This document shows positions 33,504-49,008 of a DNA stretch of 64,000 bases, in pieces (the stretch's first letter is position 1; each line of letters begins with the position of its first letter). Origin of the DNA: Acidobacteriota bacterium (GTDB taxonomy: Bacteria > Acidobacteriota > Vicinamibacteria > Vicinamibacterales > SCN-69-37); NCBI GenBank assembly GCA_013203475.1, contig JABMNV010000189.1, forward strand, positions 19,217 through 83,216, given 5' to 3'. The translations under genes were made by a program, and so were the position numbers. The notes under the pieces are model-generated. The model was not told the origin of the DNA and made no database searches. It worked only from the letters and a program-made list of their open reading frames with translations.

Positions 33504-34100
33504 CTACTGCCCGACGCCAGTCGTCACGACTATGGCGGCGCAGGGAAGGTCGCCCAGGCGGCGATAACCGTGTGGCCGGGTGGCGTCGAAATACATCGAG
33601 TCGCCCTCGGCTAACTCGTGATCCTCTCCTTCGTGGTTGATCGCCACGCGACCACGCAGGACATAAATGACTTCAGCACCAGGGTGGGCGTGTTGTGGTA
33701 TCTGTCCCTCCTGCACAGGTTCAAACTCCACGTAGTACGCGCTCATCTTCCGCTCAGGTGCTGGATAGTCGAGGCACTCGAACGAGAATGACGACGGTGC
33801 GCCATCCGGATGTTCGGGGAAGCGGACGCGATCGGCTTTGCGCACCACCGCCACGACTGGTTTTTCTCGAGCGTCGGTGAAGAAGTACTCCAGGCCAACA
33901 CCGAATACGAGCGAAATTCGGAGCAGCGTTGGCAGGGTGGGAAACAACTTGCCGCGTTCCACCTTCGACAACAGCGCGGCAGACAGTCCCGTGTGTTTGC
34001 CGAGCTGGACCAGCCCCATCTTCTTCTTGATTCGAAGTCCGCGAAGTTTTGGCCCGATTTCATAGCGTTCCAAGCCTTCCGTCAGTGTGGGAGACAACAC
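33504..34100 (-). CDS. XRE-family HTH transcriptional regulator with a C-terminal cupin domain
   Basis: IGPKLRGLRIKKKMGLVQLGKHTGLSAALLSKVERGKLFPTLPTLLRISLVFGVGLEYFF, plus cupin motifs HAHPGAEVIYVLRG...GDSMYFDATRPHGY. Confidence 0.85.
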   Translation of the reverse strand: MLSPTLTEGLERYEIGPKLRGLRIKKKMGLVQLGKHTGLSAALLSKVERGKLFPTLPTLLRISLVFGVGLEYFFTDAREKPVVAVVRKADRVRFPEHPDGAPSSFSFECLDYPAPERKMSAYYVEFEPVQEGQIPQHAHPGAEVIYVLRGRVAINHEGEDHELAEGDSMYFDATRPHGYRRLGDLPCAAIVVTTGVGQ

Positions 34101-34286: not shown

Positions 34287-34790
34287 ATGAAAAAGCAGAT
34301 TATTCGTGCAACGTTGACCGCAGTTGCGGTCCTGGCATTGGTGGCGGGTTCGACGGCTCTGCGTGCGCAGCAGCCCAAGGACATCGTCGATACCGCCGTG
34401 GCGGCGGGTTCGTTCAAGACTCTGGCGGCGGCCCTGACGGCAGCCGGTCTGATTGACACGCTCAAGGGCGACGGCCCGTTCACGGTCTTCGCGCCGACCG
34501 ACGCGGCGTTCGCGAAGTTGCCCGCCGGCACCGTTGAAATGTTGCTCAAGCCCGAGAACAAGGCCAAGTTGACGGCCATCCTGACCTACCACGTGGTAGC
34601 CGGCAACGTGATGGCGGCAAAGGTCGTGACGATGAATGGCCAGGAAGTGAAGACCGTGAATGGCCAGTCGATCAAGATCATGGTGAGCGGTGGCAAAGTG
34701 ATGGTGGATGGCGCGAACGTGGTGACCACAGACATCAAGGCGTCCAACGGCGTGATTCACGTGATCGACTCAGTGATTCTTCCCAAGTAA
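34287..34790 (+). CDS. Secreted fasciclin (FAS1) domain protein
   Basis: Signal peptide [68 protein letters not shown]...[13 protein letters not shown]. An SD-like GGAGAAG lies upstream. Confidence 0.9.
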
Positions 34791-36167: not shown

Positions 36168-36358
36168 TCTTCGCCTTCGCGGAACCCCATGACTCGGCAG
36201 TCAACAGAGGGAGTGCCGCGAGGACCGCCATACTCGTCCACATGCTGTGTGCCGATGTGTGTCTCGAGCCGCTTGCGCGCTCTCTTGACCGTATCGCAAT
36301 TCTTGATGCCGTACATCGTGACCATTCGTGACTCCTTGCGCTGTGACCGTATGATCAC
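36125..36358 (-). pseudogene. Mosaic ORF: ArsC/Spx-family N-terminal stub fused to a cfa-like methyltransferase C-terminal stub
   Basis: MVTMYGIKNCDTVKRARKRLETH (ArsC/YffB-type start), then GFREGEEWLVSHYLFGKAPR*, which parallels the C-terminus [17 protein letters not shown] of gene 41472..42581. Confidence 0.45.
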
Positions 36359-37614
36359 GGCGCCGATGATTCACGCTGGTACTCGGCGTGGCCCTTGCGC
36401 GATGGCGATGACTCGATATGTCCATGGCGAGCTCCGGCCTTGGTGAGCATCAACTGCACATCGCTGATGTGTCGCTCGCGAAACGCTCCTTCGCAGTAAG
36501 CCAGGTAGTAGTCCCACAGTCGACAGAATCGATCGTCGAATCCCAGTCGGTTCACCGCATCAGCAGACTCATGGAACCGTCGTCGCCACTCGGCCAGCGT
36601 GGCCGCGTAGTGGAGGCCGATGTCTTCAAGGTGGAACACGGATAGCTTCGTGGCCCGTGCCAGAGACCCCTGAATCTCCAGGAGAGAGGCCAGCTCAGAG
36701 CCGGGGAAGATGCGCCGCTGAATCCAGTCGCTCTGGCGTCGATACGCCTTGAATTTCTGTTCGTTCATCGTGATGGCCTGCATGACCATCGCGCCATCAG
36801 GAGCCAGCAGACGATCGCAGGCGGAGAAGAACGTATCGTAGAACTCGAACCCGACCGCCTCGAACATTTCGATGCTGACAATCTTGCTGAAGGTACCCGT
36901 CAGCTTCCGATAGTCATCCAGGAGCAGGGTAATGCGCGCGCCAGCGTCGCCCGAACTCGCAAACAACTGTTGTGCCGCGCCATGCTGTTCGCGACTGATG
37001 GTGGTGGTTGTCACCTGGCAGCCGTAGTGCTGAGAGGCGTGCAGCGCGAACGCGCCCCAGCCTGTGCCGATCTCCAGCACATGGTCGTTCGGACGCAGTT
37101 CAAGCTTTCGGCAGATGCGGTCGAGTTTCTCGACTTGCGCATCCTCAAGTGAGGTGCCGGCATCCCGATAGACCGCACTTGAATACACCATGCGCTCGTC
37201 GAGGAAGAGGCGGAAGAAGTCGTTGCTCAGGTCGTAGTGCGCATGAATATTCAGGCGGCTCCCAGTCTCGGTATTGCGATTCGTCCAGTGGCGGACGCGA
37301 TGGAAGAGGCGACTGCCTGATTGCAGCAGGGGGTGGCCCCCTTCGAGTGTGTCGAGATTGCGCGCCGCCAGGCGTACCACCGCGACCAGATCCGGTGATG
37401 ACCAATCGCCATCGACGTAGGCATCCCCGGCGGCGTCGTCTCCTCCGAGCAGCATGCGGGTAAAGAATCGTTCGTCGTGTACCGCGATGCAGGCACGCAG
37501 GTCCGATGACGGAGGGCCGAAAGTGAACGACCGGTCAGGACAGACCACTTCCAGCGACCCCTGGGTAAGCTGGTTCAGCATGCGGAACACTGCGCGTCTG
37601 GCGAATGAGGTCAT
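36355..37614 (-). CDS. cfa: Cyclopropane-fatty-acyl-phospholipid synthase family SAM methyltransferase
   Basis: Start ATG 37614 overlaps the upstream stop (ATGA). HYDLSNDFFRLFLD, VLEIGTGWGAFALHA (SAM site), FEAVGFEFYDTFF, and YLAYCEGAFRERHISDVQL. Confidence 0.85.
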   Translation of the reverse strand: MTSFARRAVFRMLNQLTQGSLEVVCPDRSFTFGPPSSDLRACIAVHDERFFTRMLLGGDDAAGDAYVDGDWSSPDLVAVVRLAARNLDTLEGGHPLLQSGSRLFHRVRHWTNRNTETGSRLNIHAHYDLSNDFFRLFLDERMVYSSAVYRDAGTSLEDAQVEKLDRICRKLELRPNDHVLEIGTGWGAFALHASQHYGCQVTTTTISREQHGAAQQLFASSGDAGARITLLLDDYRKLTGTFSKIVSIEMFEAVGFEFYDTFFSACDRLLAPDGAMVMQAITMNEQKFKAYRRQSDWIQRRIFPGSELASLLEIQGSLARATKLSVFHLEDIGLHYAATLAEWRRRFHESADAVNRLGFDDRFCRLWDYYLAYCEGAFRERHISDVQLMLTKAGARHGHIESSPSRKGHAEYQRESSAP

Positions 37615-38405
37615 CGTGATCCTTCGTTGTGTTTCGGTGCAGGTTGCACGTGGGCTGGATGGGTGAATACCGGCACGCGCTTGATGAGCAGGCGGAAGGC
37701 CTGCCAGTGAATGGCTGCAATCACCTTGATGGTCATCCACGGGTGCCGCAGAAGGGCCATGCGAATCGCGTGTGGTGTCCACGGGCGATGCGCCAGGGTC
37801 ATCGTGGCGTCAAACAGCGGCGGTGATTCCAGGTGGCGGTCGTGGGTGGCCATGTGCACCACGAGCGCCTCGCCGGGCTCTGACAAGACAAACTCGTAGT
37901 CGAGATCCATCGGCATGAACGGCGAGACGTGCAGGTCCTTCGCGCAGCGGTAACGATAGTCCGCGCGACCCGCTTGTCGGTTGTCCGCCCAGAGCCAATA
38001 GGTCCGGCGCTCGCCAAATGTATTGTTGACCTCGGCAAGGACGGCCTGGAGGGTGTGCGTCGCGTCGTAGCAGAAGAACAACGAGATGGGGTTGAAGCAG
38101 TAGCCGAGGTATCGGAGGTGCGTGAGGAGATAGATCGGCCCGCGCTCGAGCGACACCCCGTGCGCCCTGGCGTCGGTCGTGACGCGTTCGCGCAGAGATT
38201 CGGACGGCGCACCGAGATGGTCGCGGTCATCGTAGCTGGCCCAGTTAAAACGGTTGAATCCGGTCAACCGCGATCGCGCCATGACGTCTGGAATCCGGTC
38301 GACATCGAGCCAGGCCATGAACAGTTCGTACGAGAACGCATGCGCGCGCGGGCGGTAGCGTCGATGGCGGAGCGTGCCCGTGTAGAGGCCGGGCTCGGGA
38401 ATCAC
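37611..38405 (-). CDS. DUF1365-family protein
   Basis: LYTGTLRHRRYRPRAHAFSYELFMAWLDVD...YLGYCFNPISLFFCY is the DUF1365 signature. GTGA overlap with the upstream gene. Confidence 0.85.
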   Translation of the reverse strand: MIPEPGLYTGTLRHRRYRPRAHAFSYELFMAWLDVDRIPDVMARSRLTGFNRFNWASYDDRDHLGAPSESLRERVTTDARAHGVSLERGPIYLLTHLRYLGYCFNPISLFFCYDATHTLQAVLAEVNNTFGERRTYWLWADNRQAGRADYRYRCAKDLHVSPFMPMDLDYEFVLSEPGEALVVHMATHDRHLESPPLFDATMTLAHRPWTPHAIRMALLRHPWMTIKVIAAIHWQAFRLLIKRVPVFTHPAHVQPAPKHNEGSR

Positions 38406-39667
38406 GTCGCCACTCCGTCGGGGTCGGACACGCCGAGTGCGTCCGCCACGCGCCGGCCGCTGCGCACACCGTCCTCGTGGAAACCGTAGAACCAGTACGC
38501 GCCACAGAAGTGCGTGTGGTGGCGACCGCTGATCTCTGACCAGCGCTCCTGCGCCCGGATCGCCGCATGGGTGTAAAGCGGATGCGCATACGTCAGTCGC
38601 CGAAGCACGGTGGCCGGGTCGATGGCGTCGCCACCGTTGAGCGTCACACAGTAGTCTTCGGGTGTCGTCAACGACTGCAGTCGGTTCATGTGATACGTCA
38701 CGGCCACGGCATGTCGGTCACCGAGCCGATAGTTCCATGAGGCTCGGGCGGACTCTCGGCGCGGCAGGAGTGACGTATCGGTGTGCAGGCACACCTCGTT
38801 GCGCGTGGTCTGGAAGCTGCTCAGAATCTCGCGTTCGCTGTCAGTCGGCCGCTCGAGCAACGGCAGAATCTGGTCGCCGTGACAGGCAAAGACCACCTCG
38901 TCAAAGTGTTCGTCGGCGCGGCCCGCACAGCGCAAGGTGACGCCATCAGCTGAGCGCGAGACTGACGTGATCGTCACGCCGGTGAGGATGCGGTCACGAA
39001 ACGGCGCCGTCAGCGGTGCCAGATACGTGTGGCTGCCGCCGCGAATGACCCTCCACTGAGGATGGGTGGTCAGTCCCAGCATCCCGTGGTGGTGCATGAA
39101 GCGCACGAGAGTCACCACCGGGAAGCCGCGCATCGCGGTGGGGGACATGGACCAGATGGCCCCCGCCATCGGTATCAGATACCGCTCTTCGAAGACCGCC
39201 GAGTACCGCCCGTGCTCCAGGAAGTCTCCAAGTGTCCACTGCCGGCGTGTGGGATCATCCAACACGGCTGGTGCCGCACGGTTGAACCGGATGATATCGA
39301 GGAGCAACTGATGATGTCGAAGCGAGGCGAGATTCCTGCGCTGCGCGAAGAAGCCACCCAGACCGCGACTCGAGTACTCAAAGTCGCCATCCGGTGTGCT
39401 CACGCCGAATGACATGTCGCTCGGCTGAGTGTCAACGCCCAACTCGTCCATGAGCCTGCAGAAGCGCGGATACGTGCGGGAGTTGTGGACGATGAACCCG
39501 GTGTCGACTGGGACGGGGCCTGCGGCCGAGTCAACCACCACGGTGTGGGTGTGGCCGCCAATTCGTGTGTCCCGCTCGAACACGACGACCTCATAGGCGC
39601 GACTCAAGTAGAACGCGGCCGAGAGTCCGGCGATGCCGGACCCGATGACGGCCAGTCGCTTCATCAC
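38402..39667 (-). CDS. NAD/FAD-binding oxidoreductase (amine-oxidase-like, COG2907)
   Basis: KRLAVIGSGIAGLSAAFYL...VVFERDTRIGGHTHT is a dinucleotide-binding start. The length and C-terminus (FCGAYWFYGFHEDG) are typical of the family that accompanies cfa and DUF1365. Confidence 0.85.
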   Translation of the reverse strand: MMKRLAVIGSGIAGLSAAFYLSRAYEVVVFERDTRIGGHTHTVVVDSAAGPVPVDTGFIVHNSRTYPRFCRLMDELGVDTQPSDMSFGVSTPDGDFEYSSRGLGGFFAQRRNLASLRHHQLLLDIIRFNRAAPAVLDDPTRRQWTLGDFLEHGRYSAVFEERYLIPMAGAIWSMSPTAMRGFPVVTLVRFMHHHGMLGLTTHPQWRVIRGGSHTYLAPLTAPFRDRILTGVTITSVSRSADGVTLRCAGRADEHFDEVVFACHGDQILPLLERPTDSEREILSSFQTTRNEVCLHTDTSLLPRRESARASWNYRLGDRHAVAVTYHMNRLQSLTTPEDYCVTLNGGDAIDPATVLRRLTYAHPLYTHAAIRAQERWSEISGRHHTHFCGAYWFYGFHEDGVRSGRRVADALGVSDPDGVAT

Positions 39668-40473
39668 AACGCGGTCCTGGTCTTGCGCGGGGAACGCAGA
39701 TTGCCCGCGATCCCCACCCAGCTCAGGGCCTTGAGCACGAGGTACGTCACGTCAATCTCCCACCAGCGGTGTCCCTGACGACAACTGCCCGGCGAATGGT
39801 GGTGGTTGTTATGCCATCCTTCGCCCAGCGTGATGATGGCCAGCCACCAGTTGTTGCGGCTCTCGTCCCGCGTCTCGAATCGTCGCGTGCCAAACAGATG
39901 CGCCAGCGAATTGATCGCAAACGTGCAGTGATACAAGACGACCGTTGACACAACGTATCCCCACACAAACGCCGGCCAGCCGCCAATGATGGCCACCGCC
40001 GATCCGAACACGACGGTCGACACCCAATGGTGTCGATCCAGCCACACCAACTCCGGATACCGGCGCAAGTCGCGCACAGCCTCCGGGTCGTACTCGTCGA
40101 AGTCGTTCGACAGGACCCATCCGACATGCGCCCACCAGAATCCCCGCCGGTGTGGGGAGTGGACATCCGCCTCCTGATCCGACTCGCGATGGTGCAGGCG
40201 ATGGTGCGCCGCCCACCAGAGCACGCCCTTTTGCGCCGAGGTCTGCGCCAGAAAGGCCATCAGGAACTGGCCGGTGCGGCTCAATGTGTAGCTGCGATGC
40301 CCGAAGTACCGGTGATATCCAGCGGTCACGCCGAACATCCGGAGCAGGTAGGTGCCGAGCAGCCACGCCAGCAGCGCTCCTGTTGGAGGCGCCCACCACA
40401 CGGCCACTACGCCGACATGCAACAGGAGAAAGAACAACACGGCGCCGAACTGGTAGCCTCTGAGTCGTGACAT
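39664..40473 (-). CDS. Membrane acyl-CoA/acyl-lipid (delta-9-type) fatty-acid desaturase
   Basis: Three His boxes: HRYFGHRS, HHRLHHRESD and HNNHHHSP. Start chosen at ATG 40473 (MSRLRGYQ...). Confidence 0.85.
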   Translation of the reverse strand: MSRLRGYQFGAVLFFLLLHVGVVAVWWAPPTGALLAWLLGTYLLRMFGVTAGYHRYFGHRSYTLSRTGQFLMAFLAQTSAQKGVLWWAAHHRLHHRESDQEADVHSPHRRGFWWAHVGWVLSNDFDEYDPEAVRDLRRYPELVWLDRHHWVSTVVFGSAVAIIGGWPAFVWGYVVSTVVLYHCTFAINSLAHLFGTRRFETRDESRNNWWLAIITLGEGWHNNHHHSPGSCRQGHRWWEIDVTYLVLKALSWVGIAGNLRSPRKTRTAL

Positions 40474-40545
40474 GGCCCCATGTTCCTCGTCCTGCCTGTG
40501 TTTGTCAAGCATTTGTCCATTACAAATCATTGACAAGCATTAGAC
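40474..40545. promoter_or_regulatory. Divergent promoter region with a candidate CarH/LitR operator
   Basis: AT-rich island in a GC-rich genome. ttgtcaagcat (40502-12) and ttgacaagcat (40530-40) flank the palindrome tttgtccattacaaa (40512-26). Confidence 0.45.
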
Positions 40546-41475
40546 ATGGAGATAGTGTTGGTCCAGATGGCAGCGTATTACCCCATTCGAGCCGTGTCGA
40601 AGCTCACCGGCATCAGCCCAGACACCCTGCGTGCCTGGGAGCGCCGCTATCAGGCCGTCCAGCCAGACCGATCCGGGCGAGGCCGCAGGTACGGCGAGCA
40701 GGAAGTGGCGCGATTGCGGCGCCTCAATCAGCTGGTTCATCGCGGTCACGCCATCGGCGGCATTGCCGTGCTGAGCGACGATGCGCTGGATGAACTGCTG
40801 GCAACGCCGGCAGCGCCGACAGAAGTTGACAAGCGTGGGACAGCGCTCCCTACTGACCTGCTGGCGGGGGTCTTGTCGGCGATTACCGACTTTGACTCCG
40901 CGCGTGCCAACGACGAGCTGACGCGGTTGGCCGCCGTGCTGGCTCCAAAGGACTTCGTCTATCAGGCTGTGCTGCCGCTCATGCGGGAGGTCGGCACGCG
41001 CTGGCACGACGGACGATTGACAGTGGCTCAGGAACACCTGGTGTCGCAAATGCTCCGCAATCTGTTGGGCAGCCTCATGCGCCTCTATCGTTCTTCAACG
41101 TCGTCGCGCCGCATGATTGTTGCGACGCCGGCCGGTGAGTCACATGAGTTCGGCGCTCTGGCGGCGTCCATGCTCGCCGCGATTGCCGGTATCGACGTGC
41201 TGTGCCTCGGCGCCGATCTTCCGGCGGAGGAGACCGCCCGGGCCGCCCGCAGGAGTGCGGCGTCGGTCGTCCTGTACGGCATCACCGTCGTGAACGACCG
41301 GACACTTGACGAGGTGGAGTCGCTTGCGCGCGCGATGCCCGAGACCACCACGCTGTGGCTGGGGGGCGCCGGGGTGGCGTCTCTCGATCTGTCTGCATTA
41401 GAGCGCCCCGCTGTTGTGCTTCGCGATCTCTCCGAGTTCGAAGACGAGTGTCGGCGATGGAGTCTTGTGAGATGA
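40546..41475 (+). CDS. MerR-family regulator with a C-terminal B12-binding domain (CarH/LitR-type light sensor), paralog 1
   Basis: Mer[28 protein letters not shown]. Wx9EH motif in [17 protein letters not shown]. Lower-ligand motif ESHEFG (ExHxxG). Probable true start ATG 40567. Confidence 0.8.
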
Positions 41476-42581
41476 CGACATCCGCGGCAGACGCCGCCCT
41501 GCATCGTGACGCTGCGTGGTATGAGTCGCTGGTCGATCGCGACCTGGTACCTGACTGGATTTTACGCGTCGGAATCCGCCGACTGCTTCGCGCCAGGCTG
41601 CGCGAGGAAGACCGTGGGTCGCTAGAGACGCAGCGGACGCATCTCCTTGAGCATGTCGCGCGGCTGAAGGCCAGTCCCATCGCAATTCAGACCGCCGCTG
41701 CCAATCAACAGCACTACGAGGTGCCGGCCGAGTTCTTCACCTACGTCTTGGGCGAGCACCAGAAGTACAGCTGTGGTCTCTGGCAGGAGGGCGACACGCT
41801 TGATGATGCCGAGTTGCGCATGCTTGATCTGACGGCGGAGCGGGCGCGACTGACCAACGGACAGCGGGTGCTGGACCTTGGGTGCGGCTGGGGCGCGTTT
41901 GCCCTGTACGCCGCGGCCCGCTTCCCTGACAGCCGAATCACCGGTGTGTCCAACTCGCATTCTCAGCGACGATTCATTGAGGAGCGGGCTCGCGAGCGCG
42001 GGCTGACGAATCTCGACATCGTGACGGCAGATATCAATACCTTCGACGCCGGCCCTGGCTTTGACCGCATCGTGTCGGTCGAGATGATGGAACATCTGCG
42101 AAACTACCAGCAGCTGTTTGCCAACGCGGCGACGTGGCTCAAGCCGGACGGCTTGCTGTTCACGCACATCTTCACCCATCGGCGATTCGCCTATCCCTAC
42201 GAGGTGAAGGACTCCGGCGACTGGATGGCGGAACACTTCTTCACCGGCGGCCAGATGCCCAGCGACAGTCTGCTCTTGTACTTCCAGGACGATCTGCACA
42301 TTCGCCAGCACTGGGTGGTCAATGGCCGGCACTATCACCACACGGCCGAAGCCTGGCTGGCGAGGATGGACCAGCGGCGTTCCGAGGTGCTCGCCCTGTT
42401 CGCAGACGTCTACGGGGCTGCCGAGGCGCGACGATGGTTCGTGCGATGGCGGATCTTCTTCATGGCGTGCGCCGAGCTCTGGGGCTATCGACACGGTGAG
42501 GAGTGGGTGGTCTCGCACTATCTCTTCGAGCGGGAGCGGGGCCCCGGAGAAGCCGTCGGATCTGTGGTGTCCGGTGGGTGA
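41472..42581 (+). CDS. SAM-dependent methyltransferase, cyclopropane/mycolic-acid synthase family (second cfa-like gene)
   Basis: ATGA overlap with the regulator stop. [49 protein letters not shown] and [10 protein letters not shown]. Confidence 0.85.
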
Positions 42582-42585
42582 CTCC

Positions 42586-42837
42586 ATGAAGTACGCCCTC
42601 GTCGGTGTGTTTCTGCTGTACGGCGTGCCGCTCTTTCGCCTGCGCTACCGATGGCGTGCCACGGTGTATCGTAGAGACGACTGGAAGATCAACGTGCTGC
42701 CCTGGTTTGGGCACGACATCGCGGCGCTATTCACGAATCGCTATTTTCATACTCCGGAGGAACGCGCCATGGCCCGCCGCTTCCGTCTCTATCTTGCCGG
42801 GTACTGCGCGTTGCTTGCACTGGTGATCACCACATGA
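42586..42837 (+). CDS. Small membrane protein (83 aa), unknown function
   Basis: MKYALVGVFLLYGVPLF...LYLAGYCALLALVITT gives two TM helices. The stop overlaps the next start (ATGA, 42834-37). Confidence 0.5.
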   Translation: MKYALVGVFLLYGVPLFRLRYRWRATVYRRDDWKINVLPWFGHDIAALFTNRYFHTPEERAMARRFRLYLAGYCALLALVITT

Positions 42838-43622
42838 TGGTTGTCGAGTCGATGTGGTCGAACGTCTGGATGACGCTGTGGGTGAGCCTGCTCATTCAGG
42901 CGGTGTTCTTCGCCTTTGCCGCCACGTTTCGCACCGACAAGGTGACGGACCTGTCGTACGGGCTGACCTTTATCATTCTTGCGGTCGTCCTGCTGACCCA
43001 GAGTGATACGGCGGGCCTGGCCGGAATAGTGTTGGCCGGGATGGTGGTGCTCTGGGGGGTGCGCCTGGCGGGCTACCTGCTGTCTCGTATCCTCGCGATC
43101 GGTCGTGACGCACGGTTCGATGGTGTACGCGAACGGTTCTGGCCCTTCTTCCTCTTCTGGCTGGGGCAGGGCGTCGCCGTGTGGGTCATCATGTTGCCTG
43201 TCACGATGTGGTTTTCCCGCCCGGGGCCCTGGACGACGTGGATGTGGGTGGGTGGGGCGATCTGGGCGCTTGGCCTGGTGATCGAAACCATTTCCGACGC
43301 ACAGAAGTTCGTCGCCAAACAGGCGCCCGGCGGCAACGATCGCTGGATGACCACTGGTTTGTGGAAGTACAGTCGGCATCCGAACTACTTCGGCGAGTTG
43401 CTGTGTTGGTGGGGCGTGTTCGTGTTCGCGGCGGGCAGCTATGCTGGCGCGGCCTGGATCGGCGTGACCGGTCCGGTCGCGATCACCTGGATCCTGTTAC
43501 GCGTGACGGGTATTCCGACACTTGAGGCCAGTGCGGCGAAGAAGTGGGGGACCAGCGAGGGCTATCAGGCACACGTCCAGCGCACGAGCCGCCTGATCCC
43601 CTGGCCCCCGCGGGCGCACTAG
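42834..43622 (+). CDS. DUF1295-family membrane protein (steroid-5-alpha-reductase/ICMT-like fold)
   Basis: Multi-TM, with LWKYSRHPNYFGELLCWWGVF as the family signature. Confidence 0.85.
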   Translation: MMVVESMWSNVWMTLWVSLLIQAVFFAFAATFRTDKVTDLSYGLTFIILAVVLLTQSDTAGLAGIVLAGMVVLWGVRLAGYLLSRILAIGRDARFDGVRERFWPFFLFWLGQGVAVWVIMLPVTMWFSRPGPWTTWMWVGGAIWALGLVIETISDAQKFVAKQAPGGNDRWMTTGLWKYSRHPNYFGELLCWWGVFVFAAGSYAGAAWIGVTGPVAITWILLRVTGIPTLEASAAKKWGTSEGYQAHVQRTSRLIPWPPRAH

Positions 43623-45112
43623 TTCGTCCCAGAAATGGGTTCGTAGCTCCACTCCGCCAGATACCGCTTCATCCGCAACTTGCGGACGGTGTTGTCGGTA
43701 CTCATGTAGCGGATGGTTCCGAAGATGGGGCGCTCGGGGCCCCACGGGCGGTCGTAACGCCCCAGCGTCCAGCAGTAGCCCGAATAGGAATTGGGATTCC
43801 GGCCATCCAGCGCCAGCCGGTCCATGATGGCCTTCATCGTCTCCAACGCCTCTTCCGGCGAACGCGTCCACTCCAGAATCTTCTTTCCCCAGACCATGCG
43901 CAGGTAGTTGTCACACGTGCCCGTGGCAGCCAGTTGCCGCTGCGCCGCGTTCCACACGCGGTCGTGCGTTCCCGCTGCCATGAAGGTGTCGAGGTCGTAG
44001 GTGTAGGCGCGTTCGTCACTTGCATGCGCATCGAGCGTGGCCCGCGCCCAGGCCGGCAACGACGAGTACTTGTCGTAGTCATCAGGCCGCAACGCACACA
44101 TGTTGAACCCGAGCTCCCGCCACGTGATGAGCTGATCAAGAAAACCCTCCGCCGACGCGGACGCGCCCCACCATCCGGCACGCTGGCCCTTCTTGCCTGG
44201 CCCCAAGCGTCGGCTGGTCCAGCGCTCGGCGGTCATGACGGCCTCAAAGACCGCGTGCGACGTAATGTGCCCGAAGTGCAGATATGGCGACAACCCGCTG
44301 GCCATCTCATCGTCTGGATGCGAATGTCCGTCGGCGTAGTGCGGGAGTCGTTCGCGAATGAAGCGATCAAGCGTCTGCTGCGCGGCCTTCGGGCCACCTT
44401 TGATCGGCGCCACTCCGACGGAATGATCGAGCGGCAGCGAAGCCAAAAGCGCGGCTGGGTTGTCAAGCGTCGCAAGCGTTGTCGACGGCCAGCGGTCGAT
44501 CACATCCTGCCGCAGCGCCTTGAGGCGCGGCAGGCCGGTCCAGTCGATGACAGACGCCGGCCAGTCCGACAAATGATCGCGGAAGGAACCCTGCAGATAG
44601 GAACGGAACGAATAGGCGGTGAGGAAGACCTTCGTCGTGGCGCGCATCGGCAGGACGCCATTGGAATCGACGGCATCCAGGCGAACGTCCAGTGCCTGAA
44701 GCCGACGACCGGCCGCCGCCACCATCCGCGGCAGGAAGAATGACGGGAAGTCGTCTGTCACCACCAGACACGCGTCGGCCGCCAGCGCTTCCAGCAACCC
44801 CTTCCCTGCTCCTCGCGCCGGCTCCACATAGGGGATATAGGTGACGTTTGTTCCTTCCAGTGCACGCGCGTGATCGGCCATGCCATCGATGACGAATCGA
44901 TGGAGCCTGTCGCTCGCCCACGGATAGTCGCACCGGAGCGCTTCGAGAATGACCAGCGGCTTGCCCCACGCACACGCCTGTTCCACAGCATGCTGGAGCG
45001 CGAAGTTGGACGACACGCGCCGGTACGCCGTCATCCAATAGAGGACGAACGCCTCGTCTGGACGAGCCGATGCGGTGTTGACCGGACGGATGCGAACGAC
45101 AGGTACAGGCAT
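43619..45112 (-). CDS. phr: Class II CPD photolyase (deoxyribodipyrimidine photo-lyase)
   Basis: N-terminus FVLYWMTAYRRVSSNFALQHA (the YWMxxxxRxxxNxAL class II hallmark). C-terminus MVWGKKILEWTRSPEEALETMKAIMDRLALDGRNPNSYSGYCWTLG..DRPWGPERPIFGTIRYMS. Confidence 0.85.
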   Translation of the reverse strand: MPVPVVRIRPVNTASARPDEAFVLYWMTAYRRVSSNFALQHAVEQACAWGKPLVILEALRCDYPWASDRLHRFVIDGMADHARALEGTNVTYIPYVEPARGAGKGLLEALAADACLVVTDDFPSFFLPRMVAAAGRRLQALDVRLDAVDSNGVLPMRATTKVFLTAYSFRSYLQGSFRDHLSDWPASVIDWTGLPRLKALRQDVIDRWPSTTLATLDNPAALLASLPLDHSVGVAPIKGGPKAAQQTLDRFIRERLPHYADGHSHPDDEMASGLSPYLHFGHITSHAVFEAVMTAERWTSRRLGPGKKGQRAGWWGASASAEGFLDQLITWRELGFNMCALRPDDYDKYSSLPAWARATLDAHASDERAYTYDLDTFMAAGTHDRVWNAAQRQLAATGTCDNYLRMVWGKKILEWTRSPEEALETMKAIMDRLALDGRNPNSYSGYCWTLGRYDRPWGPERPIFGTIRYMSTDNTVRKLRMKRYLAEWSYEPISGTN

Positions 45113-45124
45113 GTCTGTCAGCGC

Positions 45125-45754
45125 CTACCCCAGCGGCAGCCACATCAGGATGAGCACATCCCACAGCAGATGCGCGACCAGCGCCGGCGCCACACTGCCG
45201 GTCACCGCCCTCAGCGCGCTCCAGACAAGACCGCAACCAAACGCCACCAGCACCAGCACCGGTGACCCAATCGGCGCGTGCGCCAGGGCGTAGACCACGG
45301 CGATGGCCACCACACCGACCAGCATTCCTGGCCACGACCGATCCGCGAATCTCAGCCGATCGGCGATCGCGCCCTGCACAACACCACGCCACACCAGTTC
45401 CTCGCCGATAACCACGGGGACGAACGCGATCCACGTCACGACCGCCGCCGGCGCGCGGAATGACGCGTAGAGACTGGCCGTATCGGACGCAATCGAGGGC
45501 ACGGCGCTGAGCACCATCGGATAGAGCACATACGTGGCCGCACTCATGGCGCCGCCAACCGCAAGGCCAATCGCCACCAGCGACATCGTCGGCCGCAACG
45601 CGCTCCGCACTCCCGAAAGGTCCCTCGCCGCGATGAGCACTCCCAGGATGACCGCCACACTGCCAACGGCCACCCAGATGCCAAACGTCCCGCTGAGCGC
45701 CGCCGCCGCGGTCCACGCCACGACGCAGATGACGGCAAGCATCGTGGACTTCAT
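45125..45754 (-). CDS. CPBP-family intramembrane glutamic endopeptidase (CAAX-protease-like)
   Basis: EELVWRGVVQ, YALAHAP and VAHLLWDVL motifs in a 6-TM protein. Start ATG 45754 overlaps the upstream stop. Confidence 0.8.
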   Translation of the reverse strand: MKSTMLAVICVVAWTAAAALSGTFGIWVAVGSVAVILGVLIAARDLSGVRSALRPTMSLVAIGLAVGGAMSAATYVLYPMVLSAVPSIASDTASLYASFRAPAAVVTWIAFVPVVIGEELVWRGVVQGAIADRLRFADRSWPGMLVGVVAIAVVYALAHAPIGSPVLVLVAFGCGLVWSALRAVTGSVAPALVAHLLWDVLILMWLPLG

Positions 45755-46722
45755 CGCGAGGCCTTCAGTCTCTTGCGCGCACGTTCCACCCAGCCCCACG
45801 GCCCGGGTACCGGGCCCTCAGTGCGCTCCGCATCCAGCGCCAGCCGGGCCCCTTCGGCAAACGTCAGGCGCCGTGGATGGCCGATGAGGTCCCAGAAGTG
45901 TTGGTCACGCGCCAGCAAGTCATCCGTCAGGCCCACAACCACCTCGCGCGCCACTGACCACTTTGCGCGCGTGACAAACCGCACCCAGTGCGACGACAGC
46001 CGGGGCGTCAGCAGCGGCACCTCCACCATCCACGGCAGTCCCAGGCCCATGACACGCGTGGTCTGCTCAAGAATCGCTTTGCCCGACAAGATGTCCGGCC
46101 CGGGAATATCAAACCACCCACTCCCGCCAGTCGGCATGTCCAGCGCCCGCTCCAGTGCCAACACCACATCGTCTATCGCCACCGGCTGCGTGCGCGACTT
46201 CAGCCAGCGCGGCAACACCATCACAGGCAACCGTGCGGCCAGGTCTCGGACAATGAGCCAGCTGAGACTGCCGTTGCCCACAATCATGCTGGCGCGAAGT
46301 TCAATGGTGGTGACACTGCCGGCGCGCAGTGCCTCACCCACGTCCAGGCGGCTGCGCAAGTGGTCTGAGCCACCGTGCGCCGGCGCCACTCCACCGAGAT
46401 AGACGATGCGCCGGATGTTGGCGGCGGACGCCTCGCGGGCAAACGTCTCGGCGGCGCGGACTTCCTGCTGATGATAGTCGGCGTCTTCGCCGATCCCGTG
46501 CACCAGATACAAGGCGGCGTCGCAGTCCTCCAGCGCGCGGGCGCATGACGCCGCGTCGGCGACGTCACCCTGGACCCAATCGAGCGCGGGCTCACGGCGC
46601 TGGGCTTTTGCGGCGTCGCGGGTCAGACAACGCACCTGCCAGCCGCCGGCCTCCAGCGCGGGACGGACGGCCCGGCCCACAAAGCCGGTGGCGCCGGTCA
46701 AGAGCACGCGGCGTGCGCTCAT
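45751..46722 (-). CDS. NAD(P)H-binding atypical SDR / NmrA-like protein
   Basis: RVLLTGATGFVGRAVRPALEAGGWQVRCLTRD Rossmann start, followed by a C-terminal extension domain. Confidence 0.8.
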   Translation of the reverse strand: MSARRVLLTGATGFVGRAVRPALEAGGWQVRCLTRDAAKAQRREPALDWVQGDVADAASCARALEDCDAALYLVHGIGEDADYHQQEVRAAETFAREASAANIRRIVYLGGVAPAHGGSDHLRSRLDVGEALRAGSVTTIELRASMIVGNGSLSWLIVRDLAARLPVMVLPRWLKSRTQPVAIDDVVLALERALDMPTGGSGWFDIPGPDILSGKAILEQTTRVMGLGLPWMVEVPLLTPRLSSHWVRFVTRAKWSVAREVVVGLTDDLLARDQHFWDLIGHPRRLTFAEGARLALDAERTEGPVPGPWGWVERARKRLKASR

Positions 46723-47675
46723 CGGGGACTCAGCGCTTTCGGGTACGGCTGGAAGTAGACCTGGTTGTCCAGCCAGTCGCCCACATCGTGTGTGCGCAGG
46801 TAGTGGACCAGCAGCGTGAGCGGTGCGATCACGCCATGGAGTCCGGTGCGGTAGTCATCAATCAGCACCAGCAGTTCCTGTTTCTCGGCCGGCGTCAGCG
46901 CATCCTTGAAGTAGCCCATGATGTGCTGCAGAACGTTGGCCTGTTTGCCAGGCGTGGCGCGGTCACCCAGGGCGGCCATCGCCAGCGCCGTATACTCGCG
47001 CAGCGTCTCGGTCAGCGGCCGGTCGGCCACGCCCGCCACCAACCGGCCCAGTTGCCGGTACTTCACCGGACTGTGTGCCATGTAGAGCAGCTTGTGCGCC
47101 GAGTGAAAGGCGATCAGGTTGCCGCGCGACGGAGCGTTCAGCAGCGATGTCCGCATCCGATGGTGGGTGAAGATGCGGTCGAGGAAGCACTCGCGCAATC
47201 CCGCATCCACCAGCCAGCCCTCTTCGGCCAATGGCAACGCCGGCAGCCGATCGCGCAAGTGCGCCGCGAACAGGCCGGTGCCATCGCGACCCGGGGGACC
47301 GGCGTCGCCCTCCTTGTAGACACGTACGCGCGCCAGCCCGCAACTGGGAGAGTCCTTCTTCAGGACGAAGCCATCGAGATCGGCGGCGGCCAACTCGGCC
47401 ACGCGTGCGGCGGAGTAGGTCGACATGCTCTCTGTGCTGTCCTTGCCACTCTTGTTGCCGACGAGCTTCAGGCCCAATGGCCCCGTGATGAGGCGCAGGG
47501 ATTCACGCGGCACCGGCATGCCGGATTCAAGTTCGGGACATACAGGAACAAATTCGACGAACCGGCTCAGGGTGTCGTGCACGAAGTCGTGTTTCTTGTG
47601 CCCGCCGTCGAACCGGACCTGGCGGCCGAGCAGGCACGCGCTGACGCCGATGCGCGGACGAGATTCCGTCGTCAT
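46719..47675 (-). CDS. DUF523 plus DUF1722 protein (YbgA-like)
   Basis: Start ATG 47675 (MTTESRPRIGVSACLLGRQVRFDGGHK...). The C-terminal half carries LIAFHSAHKLLYMAHS...HIMGYFK, typical of DUF1722. E. coli ybgA is the gene upstream of phr. Confidence 0.8.
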   Translation of the reverse strand: MTTESRPRIGVSACLLGRQVRFDGGHKKHDFVHDTLSRFVEFVPVCPELESGMPVPRESLRLITGPLGLKLVGNKSGKDSTESMSTYSAARVAELAAADLDGFVLKKDSPSCGLARVRVYKEGDAGPPGRDGTGLFAAHLRDRLPALPLAEEGWLVDAGLRECFLDRIFTHHRMRTSLLNAPSRGNLIAFHSAHKLLYMAHSPVKYRQLGRLVAGVADRPLTETLREYTALAMAALGDRATPGKQANVLQHIMGYFKDALTPAEKQELLVLIDDYRTGLHGVIAPLTLLVHYLRTHDVGDWLDNQVYFQPYPKALSPR

Positions 47676-48478
47676 GCCGCCACCTCGGTGAGGTACTGAT
47701 GGAACCGGGCGAACGACGTCAGTCGAACGCCGTACGACAGCGTCTCCGGCCATGCGCCGTTGCCCCCCAGCACCAGGCGCACGTTGTGGGCACGGCACGC
47801 CGCGCCCAGGTCATCGGCCAACTGGGCCAGGTCTGCCTGGTTCGTCAGGGCAACGGAGGCTGACACCACCACCAGGTCCACGTCACCCTCCCCTACCAGC
47901 CGACTCACTTCAGCCACCGGCGTGCGACGCCCCAGCCACACTGGACTCACGCCCACTTCGCGCAAGCAGAGTTCTGCCAGCGACAGCCCCAGTGTATGGT
48001 CATCGTCTCCCGCGCACACAATCAGGGACCGCTTCCCACCCAGGCGCACCGGCAAGGTGTCGCCAATGCGCGTCAACGACCGAAGCAACGCATCGGAGGC
48101 CACATGTTCTTCGGCGATGGTGAGCTGACCGGACACCCATCGACGCCCCATCTCAGCGAGCACACCGCCAATTTCATCGGCCACCCGGAACCAACCGCCG
48201 AGCCGGCCGCGGGCTTCCAGCAAACGACTGTCGATGTCGTAGCGCTGGCCGTGGGTCAGGACCCGAATCCACGAGTCACTCGGCGAAGCGTCTCCGGATG
48301 ACGCCCGAGCCTGGCCGCGCACGTATTCCTCAATCGCAAATCGCTCAAACCGCCGATGGCCACCGGCGGTGCGGGAAAACGGCAAAATGCCCTCGTCTGC
48401 CCAACGCTTGATGGTGGACGGAGCCACGGCCGCCAGCTTGGCCGCCTCGGTCGTGGTGAGCATCGAGTCCGATGTCAT
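47672..48478 (-). CDS. MerR-family regulator with a B12-binding domain (CarH/LitR-type light sensor), paralog 2
   Basis: Start ATG 48478 (MTSDSMLTTTEAAKLAAVAPSTIKRWADEG). Wx9EH in RWVSGQLTIAEEHVASD. Canonical DDHTLG (DxHxxG). Confidence 0.8.
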   Translation of the reverse strand: MTSDSMLTTTEAAKLAAVAPSTIKRWADEGILPFSRTAGGHRRFERFAIEEYVRGQARASSGDASPSDSWIRVLTHGQRYDIDSRLLEARGRLGGWFRVADEIGGVLAEMGRRWVSGQLTIAEEHVASDALLRSLTRIGDTLPVRLGGKRSLIVCAGDDDHTLGLSLAELCLREVGVSPVWLGRRTPVAEVSRLVGEGDVDLVVVSASVALTNQADLAQLADDLGAACRAHNVRLVLGGNGAWPETLSYGVRLTSFARFHQYLTEVAA

Positions 48479-48561
48479 GAGTCCATGATAGTATGTTTTG
48501 GACGATTTTAATATTATATAACGGTCAAATCGACCTTTACAGTTGCAAGAACAGAATTCAT
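48479..48561. promoter_or_regulatory. AT-rich divergent promoter region between litR/carH paralog 2 and the SRPBCC gene
   Basis: gatagtatgttttggacgattttaatattatataacggtcaaatcgacctttacagttgcaagaacag. The element gAccTttACAg (within ~48530-48542) fits the nAnnTnnACAn CarH half-site pattern. Only one clear copy was seen. Confidence 0.4.
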
Positions 48562-49008
48562 ATGCATACGCTCTCCCGTTCTCAAGTTGTCGCCAGGCCG
48601 TTGGACCAGGTCTTCGCGTTCTTTTCGGACGCGGCCAACCTGCAGGCGCTGACGCCGTCATTTCTCAACTTCCGCATCCTGACGCCCATGCCGATCGAGA
48701 TGCGCACCGGCGCGGTCATCGACTATCAGTTGTCGCTGTTTGGAATCCCGCAGCGGTGGCGCACGCGGATCACGGACTGGCAGCCAGGCGTGCAGTTTGT
48801 CGACGAGCAGGAGTCAGGGCCATACACGCTCTGGCGCCACACTCACAGGTTCGAGCCACAGGGCGAGTCAACCATCATCCATGACACGGTCGAATACCAG
48901 GAACCACTGGGCCCGCTCGGCCAGGTGGCGCATGTCCTGTTTGTGAAGCGCACGCTCGACCGGGTCTTCGACTTCAGGCGCAACGCCACAGATCGACTCC
49001 TGGGCTGA
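48562..49008 (+). CDS. SRPBCC-superfamily (cyclase/dehydrase-like) protein
   Basis: Start ATG 48562 (MHTLSRSQVVARPLDQVFAFFSDAANLQALTP...). WRTRITDWQPGVQFVDEQESGPYTLWRHTHRF is typical of COG4276-type SRPBCC proteins. Confidence 0.7.
   Translation: MHTLSRSQVVARPLDQVFAFFSDAANLQALTPSFLNFRILTPMPIEMRTGAVIDYQLSLFGIPQRWRTRITDWQPGVQFVDEQESGPYTLWRHTHRFEPQGESTIIHDTVEYQEPLGPLGQVAHVLFVKRTLDRVFDFRRNATDRLLG

Follow-up and report, generated by a model that had tools for sequence, protein, structure and literature searches.

A stretch of 64,000 nucleotides from an Acidobacteriota bacterium (GenBank assembly GCA_013203475.1, contig JABMNV010000189.1, positions 19,217 to 83,216; referred to here as the window, with positions counted from its first letter) contains 14 adjacent genes that are predicted to serve membrane-lipid remodelling and DNA photorepair. 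The genes form two units, each of which appears to be controlled by a distinct type of B12 light-sensing repressor, and we consider it probable that the units are two separate light-derepressed photoprotection modules that have been joined tail to tail in this species. Photoprotection regulons controlled by LitR/CarH proteins are already known as a type of system; the pairing of two sensor types is the new detail. All that is said below of regulation in the region has been deduced from sequence.

Mapping of open reading frames (ORFs), combined with Pfam and NCBIfam domain scans, reproduced the layout of three operons that had been proposed in an initial annotation of this DNA. Operon a, on the minus strand, encodes a membrane desaturase, a flavin adenine dinucleotide (FAD) oxidoreductase, a DUF1365 protein and a methyltransferase, and is divergent from operon b, which encodes regulator 1, a second methyltransferase (cfa2), an 83-amino acid (aa) protein and a DUF1295 protein. 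Operon c, again on the minus strand, encodes regulator 2, a YbgA-like protein, an NmrA-like protein, a CPBP family protein and a photolyase, and is divergent from a gene for an SRPBCC protein. The translationally coupled ATGA and GTGA junctions that had been described are present: eight gene junctions are 4-nt overlaps of start and stop codons (GTGA twice, ATGA six times), and the remaining two are gaps of 4 and 12 nt. The cluster had been counted as 13 genes, all of which are there, but with the SRPBCC gene included the count becomes 14. Its boundaries were placed correctly, since the flanking genes, for a SpoIIE phosphatase, a GDSL lipase and an M13 peptidase, look unrelated.

Two types of B12-binding regulator

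Both regulators have the sequence hallmarks of adenosylcobalamin (AdoCbl) photoreceptor repressors, and their nearest solved relatives, CarH of Thermus thermophilus (TtCarH) and CtMerR (PDB 8JBS), are both AdoCbl-dependent and light-responsive by experiment. Regulator 1 (40567-41475, plus strand; Pfam MerR_1, B12-binding_2 and B12-binding) is of the CarH/LitR class I type. It aligns over its full length with TtCarH (5c8d, E 8e-26) with the Wx9EH and ExHxxG motifs in register, such that its Wx9EH stretch and ESHEFG fall on W131-x9-E141H142 and the His177 motif of TtCarH. Its DNA-binding domain (DBD) is a MerR-type winged helix (Pfam MerR_1, E 7e-16) with the recognition helix LRAWERRY, and the pattern RxWERRY is present in 22 CarH-type ORFs across the related loci that we fetched for comparison (given below by numbers beginning with L). 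RxWERRY, W-H and ExHEFG are all kept in the regulator 1 orthologues (L081-L104). In addition, regulator 1 has a His right after the Trp, the residue that forms the bis-His light state in TtCarH (PMC9304148). With an RxWERRY DBD, a four-helix bundle carrying W-H-x8-EH and a Rossmann domain carrying ExHxxG, it resembles the CarH or class I LitR proteins of T. thermophilus, Myxococcus xanthus and Bacillus megaterium. The NCBIfam CarH model is its best model, but the match stays below the equivalog cut-off (118 versus 400 bits). The initial annotation had started regulator 1 at the ATG at 40546. The most likely start is instead the ATG at 40567 (MAAYYPIR), because a conserved -35/-10 pair (TTGACA at 40530-40535 and TAGTGT at 40553-40558) lies across the ATG at 40546 and the regulator 1 genes of relatives begin at the position equivalent to 40567.

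Regulator 2 (47672-48478, minus strand; Pfam HTH_17, MerR, B12-binding and B12-binding_2) begins with a BldC/excisionase-like helix-turn-helix (HTH) that contains IKRWADEG and matches Pfam HTH_17 and the NCBIfam BldC-type HTH; the RxWERRY DBD of CarH is absent. Because its N-terminal HTH is of this type, we class regulator 2 with the CtMerR-type regulators and not with CarH proper. Its best PDB match is CtMerR itself (8jbs, E 1.5e-19), at a modest level and in two segments. CtMerR binds AdoCbl, passes from a tetramer in the dark to a monomer after green light, is without an equivalent of His132, and joins an alternative DBD to a light-responsive cobalamin-binding domain with the signature GxxW, EH, GxxH and GxxxP (PMC11796333). 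Of this signature, regulator 2 has GRRW, EEH and GRRTP, and its motifs RWVSGQLTIAEEH and DDHTLG align with the Wx9EH and His177 motifs of TtCarH. Regulator 2 is like CtMerR (8JBS/8JBT) in its alternative HTH, its Wx9EH, its His lower ligand and its GxxxP element. In neither protein is the Trp followed by a His, and the light state of regulator 2 would accordingly not be bis-His. With 816 homologues at E <= 1e-10 the family is a large one, and among the best 120 of these Wx9EH is present in 117 and (D/E)xHxxG in 113.

The two regulators share 26% identity across 88 residues of the cobalamin-binding domain, and their DBDs and operators differ. The initial annotation had described them as twin sensors of the CarH/LitR type, both with Wx9EH and with the lower-ligand motifs ESHEFG and DDHTLG, respectively. 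Those motifs are present and align with TtCarH, and the hallmarks of an AdoCbl photoreceptor stand for both proteins; the CarH/LitR assignment does not extend to regulator 2, and the proteins are not a twin pair. Given that regulator 1 has the His of the bis-His state and regulator 2 does not, their photochemistry and the way in which they reset may not be alike.

Predicted operators and promoters

The intergenic region between the desaturase and regulator 1 contains a 33-bp palindrome, TGTCAAGCATTTGTCCATTACAAATCATTGACA (40503-40535), that we predict to be the operator of regulator 1 (operator 1). Its consensus, TGTCAA-N3-TTTGTC-N-ATGACA-N-A-N3-TTGACA, is the sole invariant intergenic element among relatives. 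Operator scans covered the window and the fetched related loci (1.53 Mb). Operator 1 is unique in the window, against a chance expectation of 0 matches; it occupies the same desaturase/regulator 1 position in 22 loci, the window and L111 counted, and occurs nowhere else in the 1.53 Mb. Each of the two inverted arms of the palindrome holds a pair of TnnACA-like half-sites spaced 11 bp apart, and of these four half-sites the outer ones read TTGACA on each strand and form the -35 boxes of both divergent promoters. On both sides the -10 element is located 17-18 bp past TTGACA and the start codon 6-8 nt past the -10. The desaturase ATG, for example, is 6 nt after a -10-like GAACAT that is itself 17 nt after the left-arm TTGACA, and the geometry is the same in relatives. 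The -10 elements of relatives are TATAGT-like for regulator 1 and TAATAT or TAATAA for the desaturase, compared with TAGTGT and GAACAT in the window. Given the distance of 6-8 nt from -10 to start codon on both sides, the desaturase and regulator 1 transcripts are predicted to be leaderless.

Mapped CarH operators are composed of three to four tandem 11-bp direct repeats, nnnnTnnACAn, that overlap the promoter, and in the occlusion model of CarH the -35 TTGACA is inside a TnnACA repeat (PMC9304148). Regulator 1 would share with CarH its autoregulatory divergent setting, the -35 TTGACA within a TnnACA repeat and the 11-bp periodicity. Unlike CarH, its predicted operator is a palindrome for two leaderless divergent promoters, with half-sites that overlap both -35 boxes but are arranged as two plus two inverted and not in tandem. 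One candidate for a third tandem repeat (TAGACA, 40541-40546), which would match the three-repeat arrangement of TtCarH, was rejected as it is not conserved in relatives. Activation of the MerR type was also rejected: the spacers in the cluster are 16-18 bp and not 19-20 bp, and the operators overlap the -35, which together argue for repression by occlusion.

Between regulator 2 and the SRPBCC gene there is an inverted repeat, GGACGATTT-N18-AAATCGACC on the plus strand (48500-48535), that is conserved in relatives and is the predicted operator of regulator 2 (operator 2). We compared the upstream regions of 12 genes for regulators of this type (58-100% identity), and inverted repeats of GGTCGATTT / AAATCGWCC were detected in all 12. 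Most relatives have a perfect core, GGTCGATTTCAA/TTGAAATCGACC, with an extra half-site on either side; the arms in the window are 18 bp further apart than in this core. On the strand of regulator 2, operator 2 immediately precedes a TATCAT -10 and a leaderless ATG, and in the other loci of this type it is likewise followed by a TATCNT -10 and, approximately 7 nt on, by an ATG. Strict half-sites are found in the window only at 48500-48535, and a looser pattern gives scattered one-strand matches that we regard as chance. Elsewhere, palindromes resembling operator 2, GGTCGNTT...AANCGACC, match both strands in L003 (5822-5847), L055 (5896-5915), L072 (6285-6304) and L105 (7111-7140), and may be further operators of related regulators.

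Counting both operators, the start codon is 6-8 nt after the -10 at three of the four promoters of the cluster (40473, 40567 and 48478) and in relatives, some of which use a GTG start, and the mRNAs of the desaturase operon and of both regulator operons appear to be leaderless. Each operator occurs just once in the window. The lack of cross sites, together with the different operators and DBDs, leads us to infer that the two autoregulated, light-derepressed circuits are probably separate and orthogonal.

Predicted output genes

Three genes, encoding UfaD (an FAD protein), UfaO (a DUF1365 protein in both Rhodobacter sphaeroides and Rhodopseudomonas palustris) and UfaM, are necessary and sufficient for synthesis of the furan fatty acid (FuFA) 9M5-FuFA; in R. 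palustris they are ordered ufaD-ufaO-ufaM (RPA2571-2569), and the dimethyl form is the product of a second, 26% identical methylase, FufM (PMC7380195). These families, coupled in that order, are also present in operon a. Its first gene encodes a membrane fatty-acid desaturase (39664-40473, minus strand; Pfam FA_desaturase E 8e-20, NCBIfam DesA family). This is followed by an FAD amine-oxidase-like oxidoreductase that resembles the fatty-acyl desaturase UfaD (38402-39667, minus strand; Pfam Amino_oxidase E 8e-24, NAD_binding_8), with a GTGA overlap at either end of its gene, by a UfaO-like DUF1365 protein that is a candidate furan-ring-forming oxygenase (37611-38405, minus strand; Pfam DUF1365 E 2.2e-81), and, after an ATGA overlap, by a UfaM-like/cfa methyltransferase of the S-adenosylmethionine (SAM)-dependent CMAS family (36355-37614, minus strand; Pfam CMAS E 6.5e-81). 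Operon a is therefore a probable FuFA operon, judged by its gene content, and the membrane desaturase at its head is inferred to supply the cis-monoene substrate. Lipid-modifying genes would set regulator 1 apart from CarH of Thermus, Myxococcus and Bacillus, whose targets are carotenoid genes.

Regulator 1 is followed by cfa2 (41472-42581, plus strand; Pfam CMAS E 1.3e-42), a second CMAS-like SAM methyltransferase that is 27% identical to that of operon a and is a FufM-like candidate, by the 83-aa protein, a predicted two-helix membrane protein with no Pfam family (42586-42837, plus strand), and by a DUF1295 membrane protein of the steroid-reductase/ICMT-like fold family (42834-43622, plus strand; Pfam DUF1295 E 4e-62). 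The gene for cfa2 adjoins a DUF1295 gene in most loci, in three phyla. The DUF1295 protein has weaker Pfam matches to Steroid_dh, PEMT and ICMT, and a sequence search found no solved relative. The adjacency and these weak similarities suggest, speculatively, that cfa2 and DUF1295 share a lipid-modifying step. Sterol C-24 methyltransferase, followed by a membrane reductase, is an analogue, and by that analogy cfa2, DUF1295 and a small membrane partner may form an undescribed methylenation/reduction pathway for membrane lipids. The 83-aa protein is 75-84% identical in L005-L009 and L082/83, which is above the conservation of the neighboring DUF1295 and argues for a genuine gene. In L105 an 85-aa gene, a counterpart by position, precedes DUF1295. 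In the distant regulator 1 modules L084-L099 the same slot contains an unrelated DUF1475 membrane protein of approximately 105 aa (for example, at about 2392-2720 in L086), so that DUF1295 again has a small membrane partner upstream of it, although a different protein.

In operon c, regulator 2 is followed on the minus strand by the YbgA-like protein (46719-47675; Pfam 2-thiour_desulf E 6e-39 and DUF1722 E 2e-37), an NAD(P)H-binding protein resembling NmrA and atypical short-chain dehydrogenases (45751-46722; Pfam NAD_binding_10, Epimerase and NmrA), a CPBP (Rce1-like) intramembrane glutamic protease family protein (45125-45754; Pfam Rce1-like E 1e-15), whose start was chosen from its ATGA overlap and from a 209-aa gene call in L111, and the photolyase (43619-45112; NCBIfam phr2 E 3e-94). 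The NmrA-like and CPBP genes, which are separate and overlapping in the window, are fused in L105 (5311-6912) and L110 (8792-10420) into genes for proteins of 533-542 aa, indicating that the two proteins act together. TIGR00591 phr2 spans residues 7-487 of the photolyase, and PDB entries 8oet, 2xry and 3umv cover residues 5-489 (E 2e-64 to 3e-49). Entries 2xry and 3umv we take to be class II cyclobutane pyrimidine dimer (CPD) photolyases, and we assign the protein, by these full-length matches, to that class and not to class I or the FeS-BCP group. On the plus strand, divergent from operon c, is the SRPBCC gene (48562-49008; Pfam Polyketide_cyc and Polyketide_cyc2), encoding a START/polyketide-cyclase-like protein of lipid-binding fold.

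Operons b and c end in a single CTAG (43619-43622) within which their stop codons overlap, just as the initial annotation had it. No terminator-like site or notable RNA structure was found at this junction (fold z-score 0.08 on either strand), and it leaves no room for a terminator. Both operons are presumed to be light-induced and converge here, and read-through would yield transcripts antisense to the DUF1295 and photolyase genes, so that transcription of the one operon might interfere with that of the other.

The view that this set of genes recurs in light and singlet-oxygen regulons is borne out, as the same families are found in those of Pseudomonas putida, Vibrio cholerae, Chlamydomonas and Rhodobacter. 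The LitR proteins PplR1-3 of P. putida control phrB, ufaM and genes of unknown function through palindromic operators that overlap the -35, and the Pseudomonas class II LitRs are without a B12-binding Rossmann domain, depend on a LOV partner and bind TGTACA-N12-TGTACA (PMC9758184). The cluster resembles PplR1-3 and PmlR2 of Pseudomonas mendocina in having LitR-family repressors over a photolyase and a ufaM-type methylase, with operators overlapping the -35, and differs from these class II proteins in that both of its regulators keep complete AdoCbl motifs and have distinct operators. In V. cholerae, two regulators, ChrR and a MerR-like protein, divide the blue-light response between them in parallel, and the gene for the MerR-like protein shares a transcript with phr. 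The outputs of the window (UfaD, UfaO, a UfaM/cfa-like methylase and photolyase) are those of the sigmaE-ChrR and FuFA systems of R. sphaeroides, R. palustris and V. cholerae; unlike sigmaE-ChrR, direct photoreception is predicted in place of singlet-oxygen sensing, and a membrane desaturase has been added at the head of operon a. Neither an extracytoplasmic function (ECF) sigma factor nor ChrR was found among the 14 cluster proteins and the scanned flanking ORFs, the sole trace being a weak ChrR-cupin match (E 2.5e-4) in an XRE-cupin protein 2.3 kb away. We found no published work on CarH or LitR in Acidobacteria.

The SAK1 singlet-oxygen regulon of Chlamydomonas includes CFA1/2, DUF1365, DUF2177, DUF1295, SOUL and a fasciclin-like protein, and the fasciclin-like FAS2 is strongly induced by singlet oxygen and light (PMC4067076). 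Families of this regulon also surround the genes for CtMerR-type regulators in the loci examined. Divergent from such genes, or downstream of them, are DUF2177, DCC1-like, acyltransferase, SOUL haem-binding, DUF4397 and RPE65 carotenoid oxygenase genes (L107, 3788-7928; L116, 6176-7837; L109, 11113-12579), and these would widen the predicted CtMerR-type regulon. Approximately 1.5 kb from the cluster, an XRE-HTH and cupin regulator (33504-34100, minus strand) is divergent from a fasciclin-domain gene (34287-34790, plus strand). The same pair directly abuts the regulator 2 module in L105 (1491-2777), and fasciclin genes adjoin CarH-type regulators in L109 (398-934) and L110 (3087-3614). The pair may be a further member of the light response.

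Proposed light response and origin of the cluster

In the proposed mechanism, each regulator would bind AdoCbl in the dark, oligomerize and occupy its own operator in its own divergent intergenic region. Regulator 1, on 40503-40535, would cover both TTGACA -35 boxes and so shut off both the desaturase, UfaD, UfaO and UfaM genes and its own operon with cfa2, the 83-aa protein and DUF1295. Regulator 2, on 48500-48535, would cover the promoter of its own operon, from regulator 2 through YbgA, NmrA-like and CPBP to the photolyase, and probably also that of the SRPBCC gene. Light from UV to green would cleave the Co-C bond, the oligomers would dissociate and all four transcription units would be derepressed. 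Module 1 would then remodel existing phospholipid acyl chains by desaturation, methylation, a second desaturation and an O2-dependent closure of the furan ring, to give furan fatty acids that scavenge singlet oxygen, and cfa2 with DUF1295 would carry out further methyl-lipid modification. Module 2 would provide CPD photorepair and accessory functions.

Several observations weigh against this reading. In the alignment with 5c8d, the Ser of the classic B12 motif SxT/V is replaced by Gly in regulator 1, and regulator 2, unlike CtMerR, reads DDDH at the GxxH position of the 8jbs alignment. No B12 synthesis or uptake gene and no cobalamin riboswitch was seen in the window, where a search for Rfam families and tRNAs also returned none. 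Upstream of the SRPBCC gene there is no convincing -35/-10 pair of a sigma-70 promoter. The predicted operators are 2+2 inverted repeats, as opposed to the tandem direct repeats of all mapped CarH operators, and the mode of binding may differ. Lastly, both CMAS proteins match NCBIfam cyclopropane-fatty-acid synthase models best, yet below the equivalog cut-offs, and both may make cyclopropane or methyl-branched products.

The last of these points underlies the alternative that survives best, namely that the products of operon a and cfa2 are cyclopropane or mid-chain methyl-branched fatty acids and not furans. It would also fit the finding that RSP1089, the cfa-like gene of the Rhodobacter operon, is dispensable for FuFA synthesis (PMC7380195). 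Against it, the gene order is that of R. palustris, with translational coupling between the UfaD-like, UfaO-like and methyltransferase genes, and the four-gene unit is kept in every locus that is long enough. To our knowledge, cyclopropanation requires neither an FAD desaturase nor a DUF1365 protein. We consider these other products to be unlikely, though with an appreciable chance.

Less probable again is that one or both regulators are independent of B12 or are not photoreceptors, as with CarA and the class II-V LitRs, or sense B12 supply or redox state, and that they respond to another signal, for example singlet oxygen through a partner protein. B12-independent paralogues are common, and CarA keeps the B12 motif yet is B12-independent (PMC9304148); class II LitRs need a LOV partner (PMC9758184); and the B12 motifs of both regulators show the small deviations already noted. 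Clusters in Gemmatimonadota are also relevant. The class II photolyase clusters of L018, L020, L027, L030, L036 and L061 are bordered by a MerR-B12-like regulator at one end or, in L036 and L061, at both. Of the two regulators in such a pair, one retains Wx9EH and its partner mostly does not, an arrangement that recalls the CarH/CarA pair of Myxococcus. In the window, however, both regulators have the intact Wx9EH and His-ligand motifs that are the published means of telling CarH from CarA (PMC9304148). The motifs are retained by all regulator 1 orthologues and, in the proportions given above (117 and 113 of 120), by the relatives of regulator 2, the nearest solved relatives of both are light-responsive, and the cluster and the scanned flanking ORFs yielded no LOV, CarS-like or ECF-sigma/ChrR gene.

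Regulator 2 is identical on lake-metagenome contigs, of which L111 shares the architecture of the window with a single base difference in operator 1, and the nearest genomic relatives of the photolyase are Acidobacteriota metagenome-assembled genomes, several of them Vicinamibacterales (best 83% identity). The organism is therefore an uncultured freshwater acidobacterium. A metagenome scan with regulator 1 returned 24 loci (52-74% identity), and the divergent unit, with cfa, DUF1365, FAD oxidoreductase and desaturase on one side and regulator 1 on the other, is kept wherever the locus is long enough. The initial annotation had viewed the region as a single supercluster. Instead, the closest relative of module 2, L001 (83-91% identity), contains the SRPBCC gene divergent from regulator 2, YbgA, NmrA, CPBP and phr, and the 10 kb that follow its photolyase gene downstream are free of module 1 genes; module 2 is not present in the module 1 relatives L081-L104; and the CTAG junction is seen in this species alone (the window and L111). 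The region thus appears to consist of two older modules (36355-43622 and 43619-49008) whose physical fusion is recent.

The functional association of the modules is, by contrast, recurrent. Across relatives, the accessory genes for SRPBCC, NmrA-like, DUF1295 and the 83-aa protein turn up now in one module and now in the other. SRPBCC and NmrA-like genes belong to the regulator 1 operon in L084-L102 and to the regulator 2 module in the window, and DUF1295 belongs to the divergent regulator 2 unit in L105 and L107 and to the regulator 1 operon in the window. An SRPBCC gene neighbors the regulator, likewise divergently, in L001, L105 and L117 and is the second gene of the divergent operon in L107, YbgA also follows regulators of the second type in L001, L106 and L108, and in the planctomycete locus L079 FAD oxidoreductase, DUF1365, cfa, cfa2, DUF1295 and phr genes are all behind a single regulator 2-like gene. 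Such exchange of gene families suggests that the modules belong to one recurrent functional response. Pairing of CarH-type and CtMerR-type regulators is not unique to the window either, as L109 and L110, which are likewise acidobacterial, each have genes for both types at a distance of 3-7 kb. The least probable alternative, that adjacency is meaningless and unrelated operon sets without a common regulon happen to abut, would account for the separate places of the modules in the closest relatives, the differing operators without cross sites and the species-specific CTAG junction, but fits poorly with the repeated recombination of the same families around either regulator type (L084-L102, L105, L107 and L079) and with the pairs in L109 and L110.

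A broader possibility, which we put forward tentatively and regard as somewhat short of an even chance, is that Acidobacteriota run two orthogonal B12 switches side by side that time lipid remodelling and DNA repair separately. One would be CarH, with its bis-His light state, and the other a CtMerR-type protein without the His, with its own operator (GGTCGATTTCAA/TTGAAATCGACC) and a conserved regulon that is predicted to include YbgA, lipocalin, the NmrA-CPBP unit, photolyase, SRPBCC, DCC1, DUF2177 and DUF1295. The CtMerR paper reports no target genes or operator (PMC11796333), and the operator and regulon given here would be the first predicted for CtMerR-type B12 photoreceptors, which have so far been characterized only photochemically. 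Also new are the presence of two distinct and apparently complete AdoCbl sensor types side by side, the predicted 2+2 palindromic operator of CarH type serving two leaderless promoters, which extends the design of CarH operators, and, in Acidobacteriota, a non-phototrophic, uncultured phylum of fresh water and soil, a probable FuFA operon that is predicted to be controlled directly by a photoreceptor. If the proposed two-module arrangement is true, the region would contain two compact and probably non-cross-talking green-light repressor/operator pairs that may serve optogenetics, and the roles of DUF1295, the 83-aa protein, the NmrA-CPBP unit and SRPBCC would be narrowed to the protection of membranes against light and singlet oxygen.

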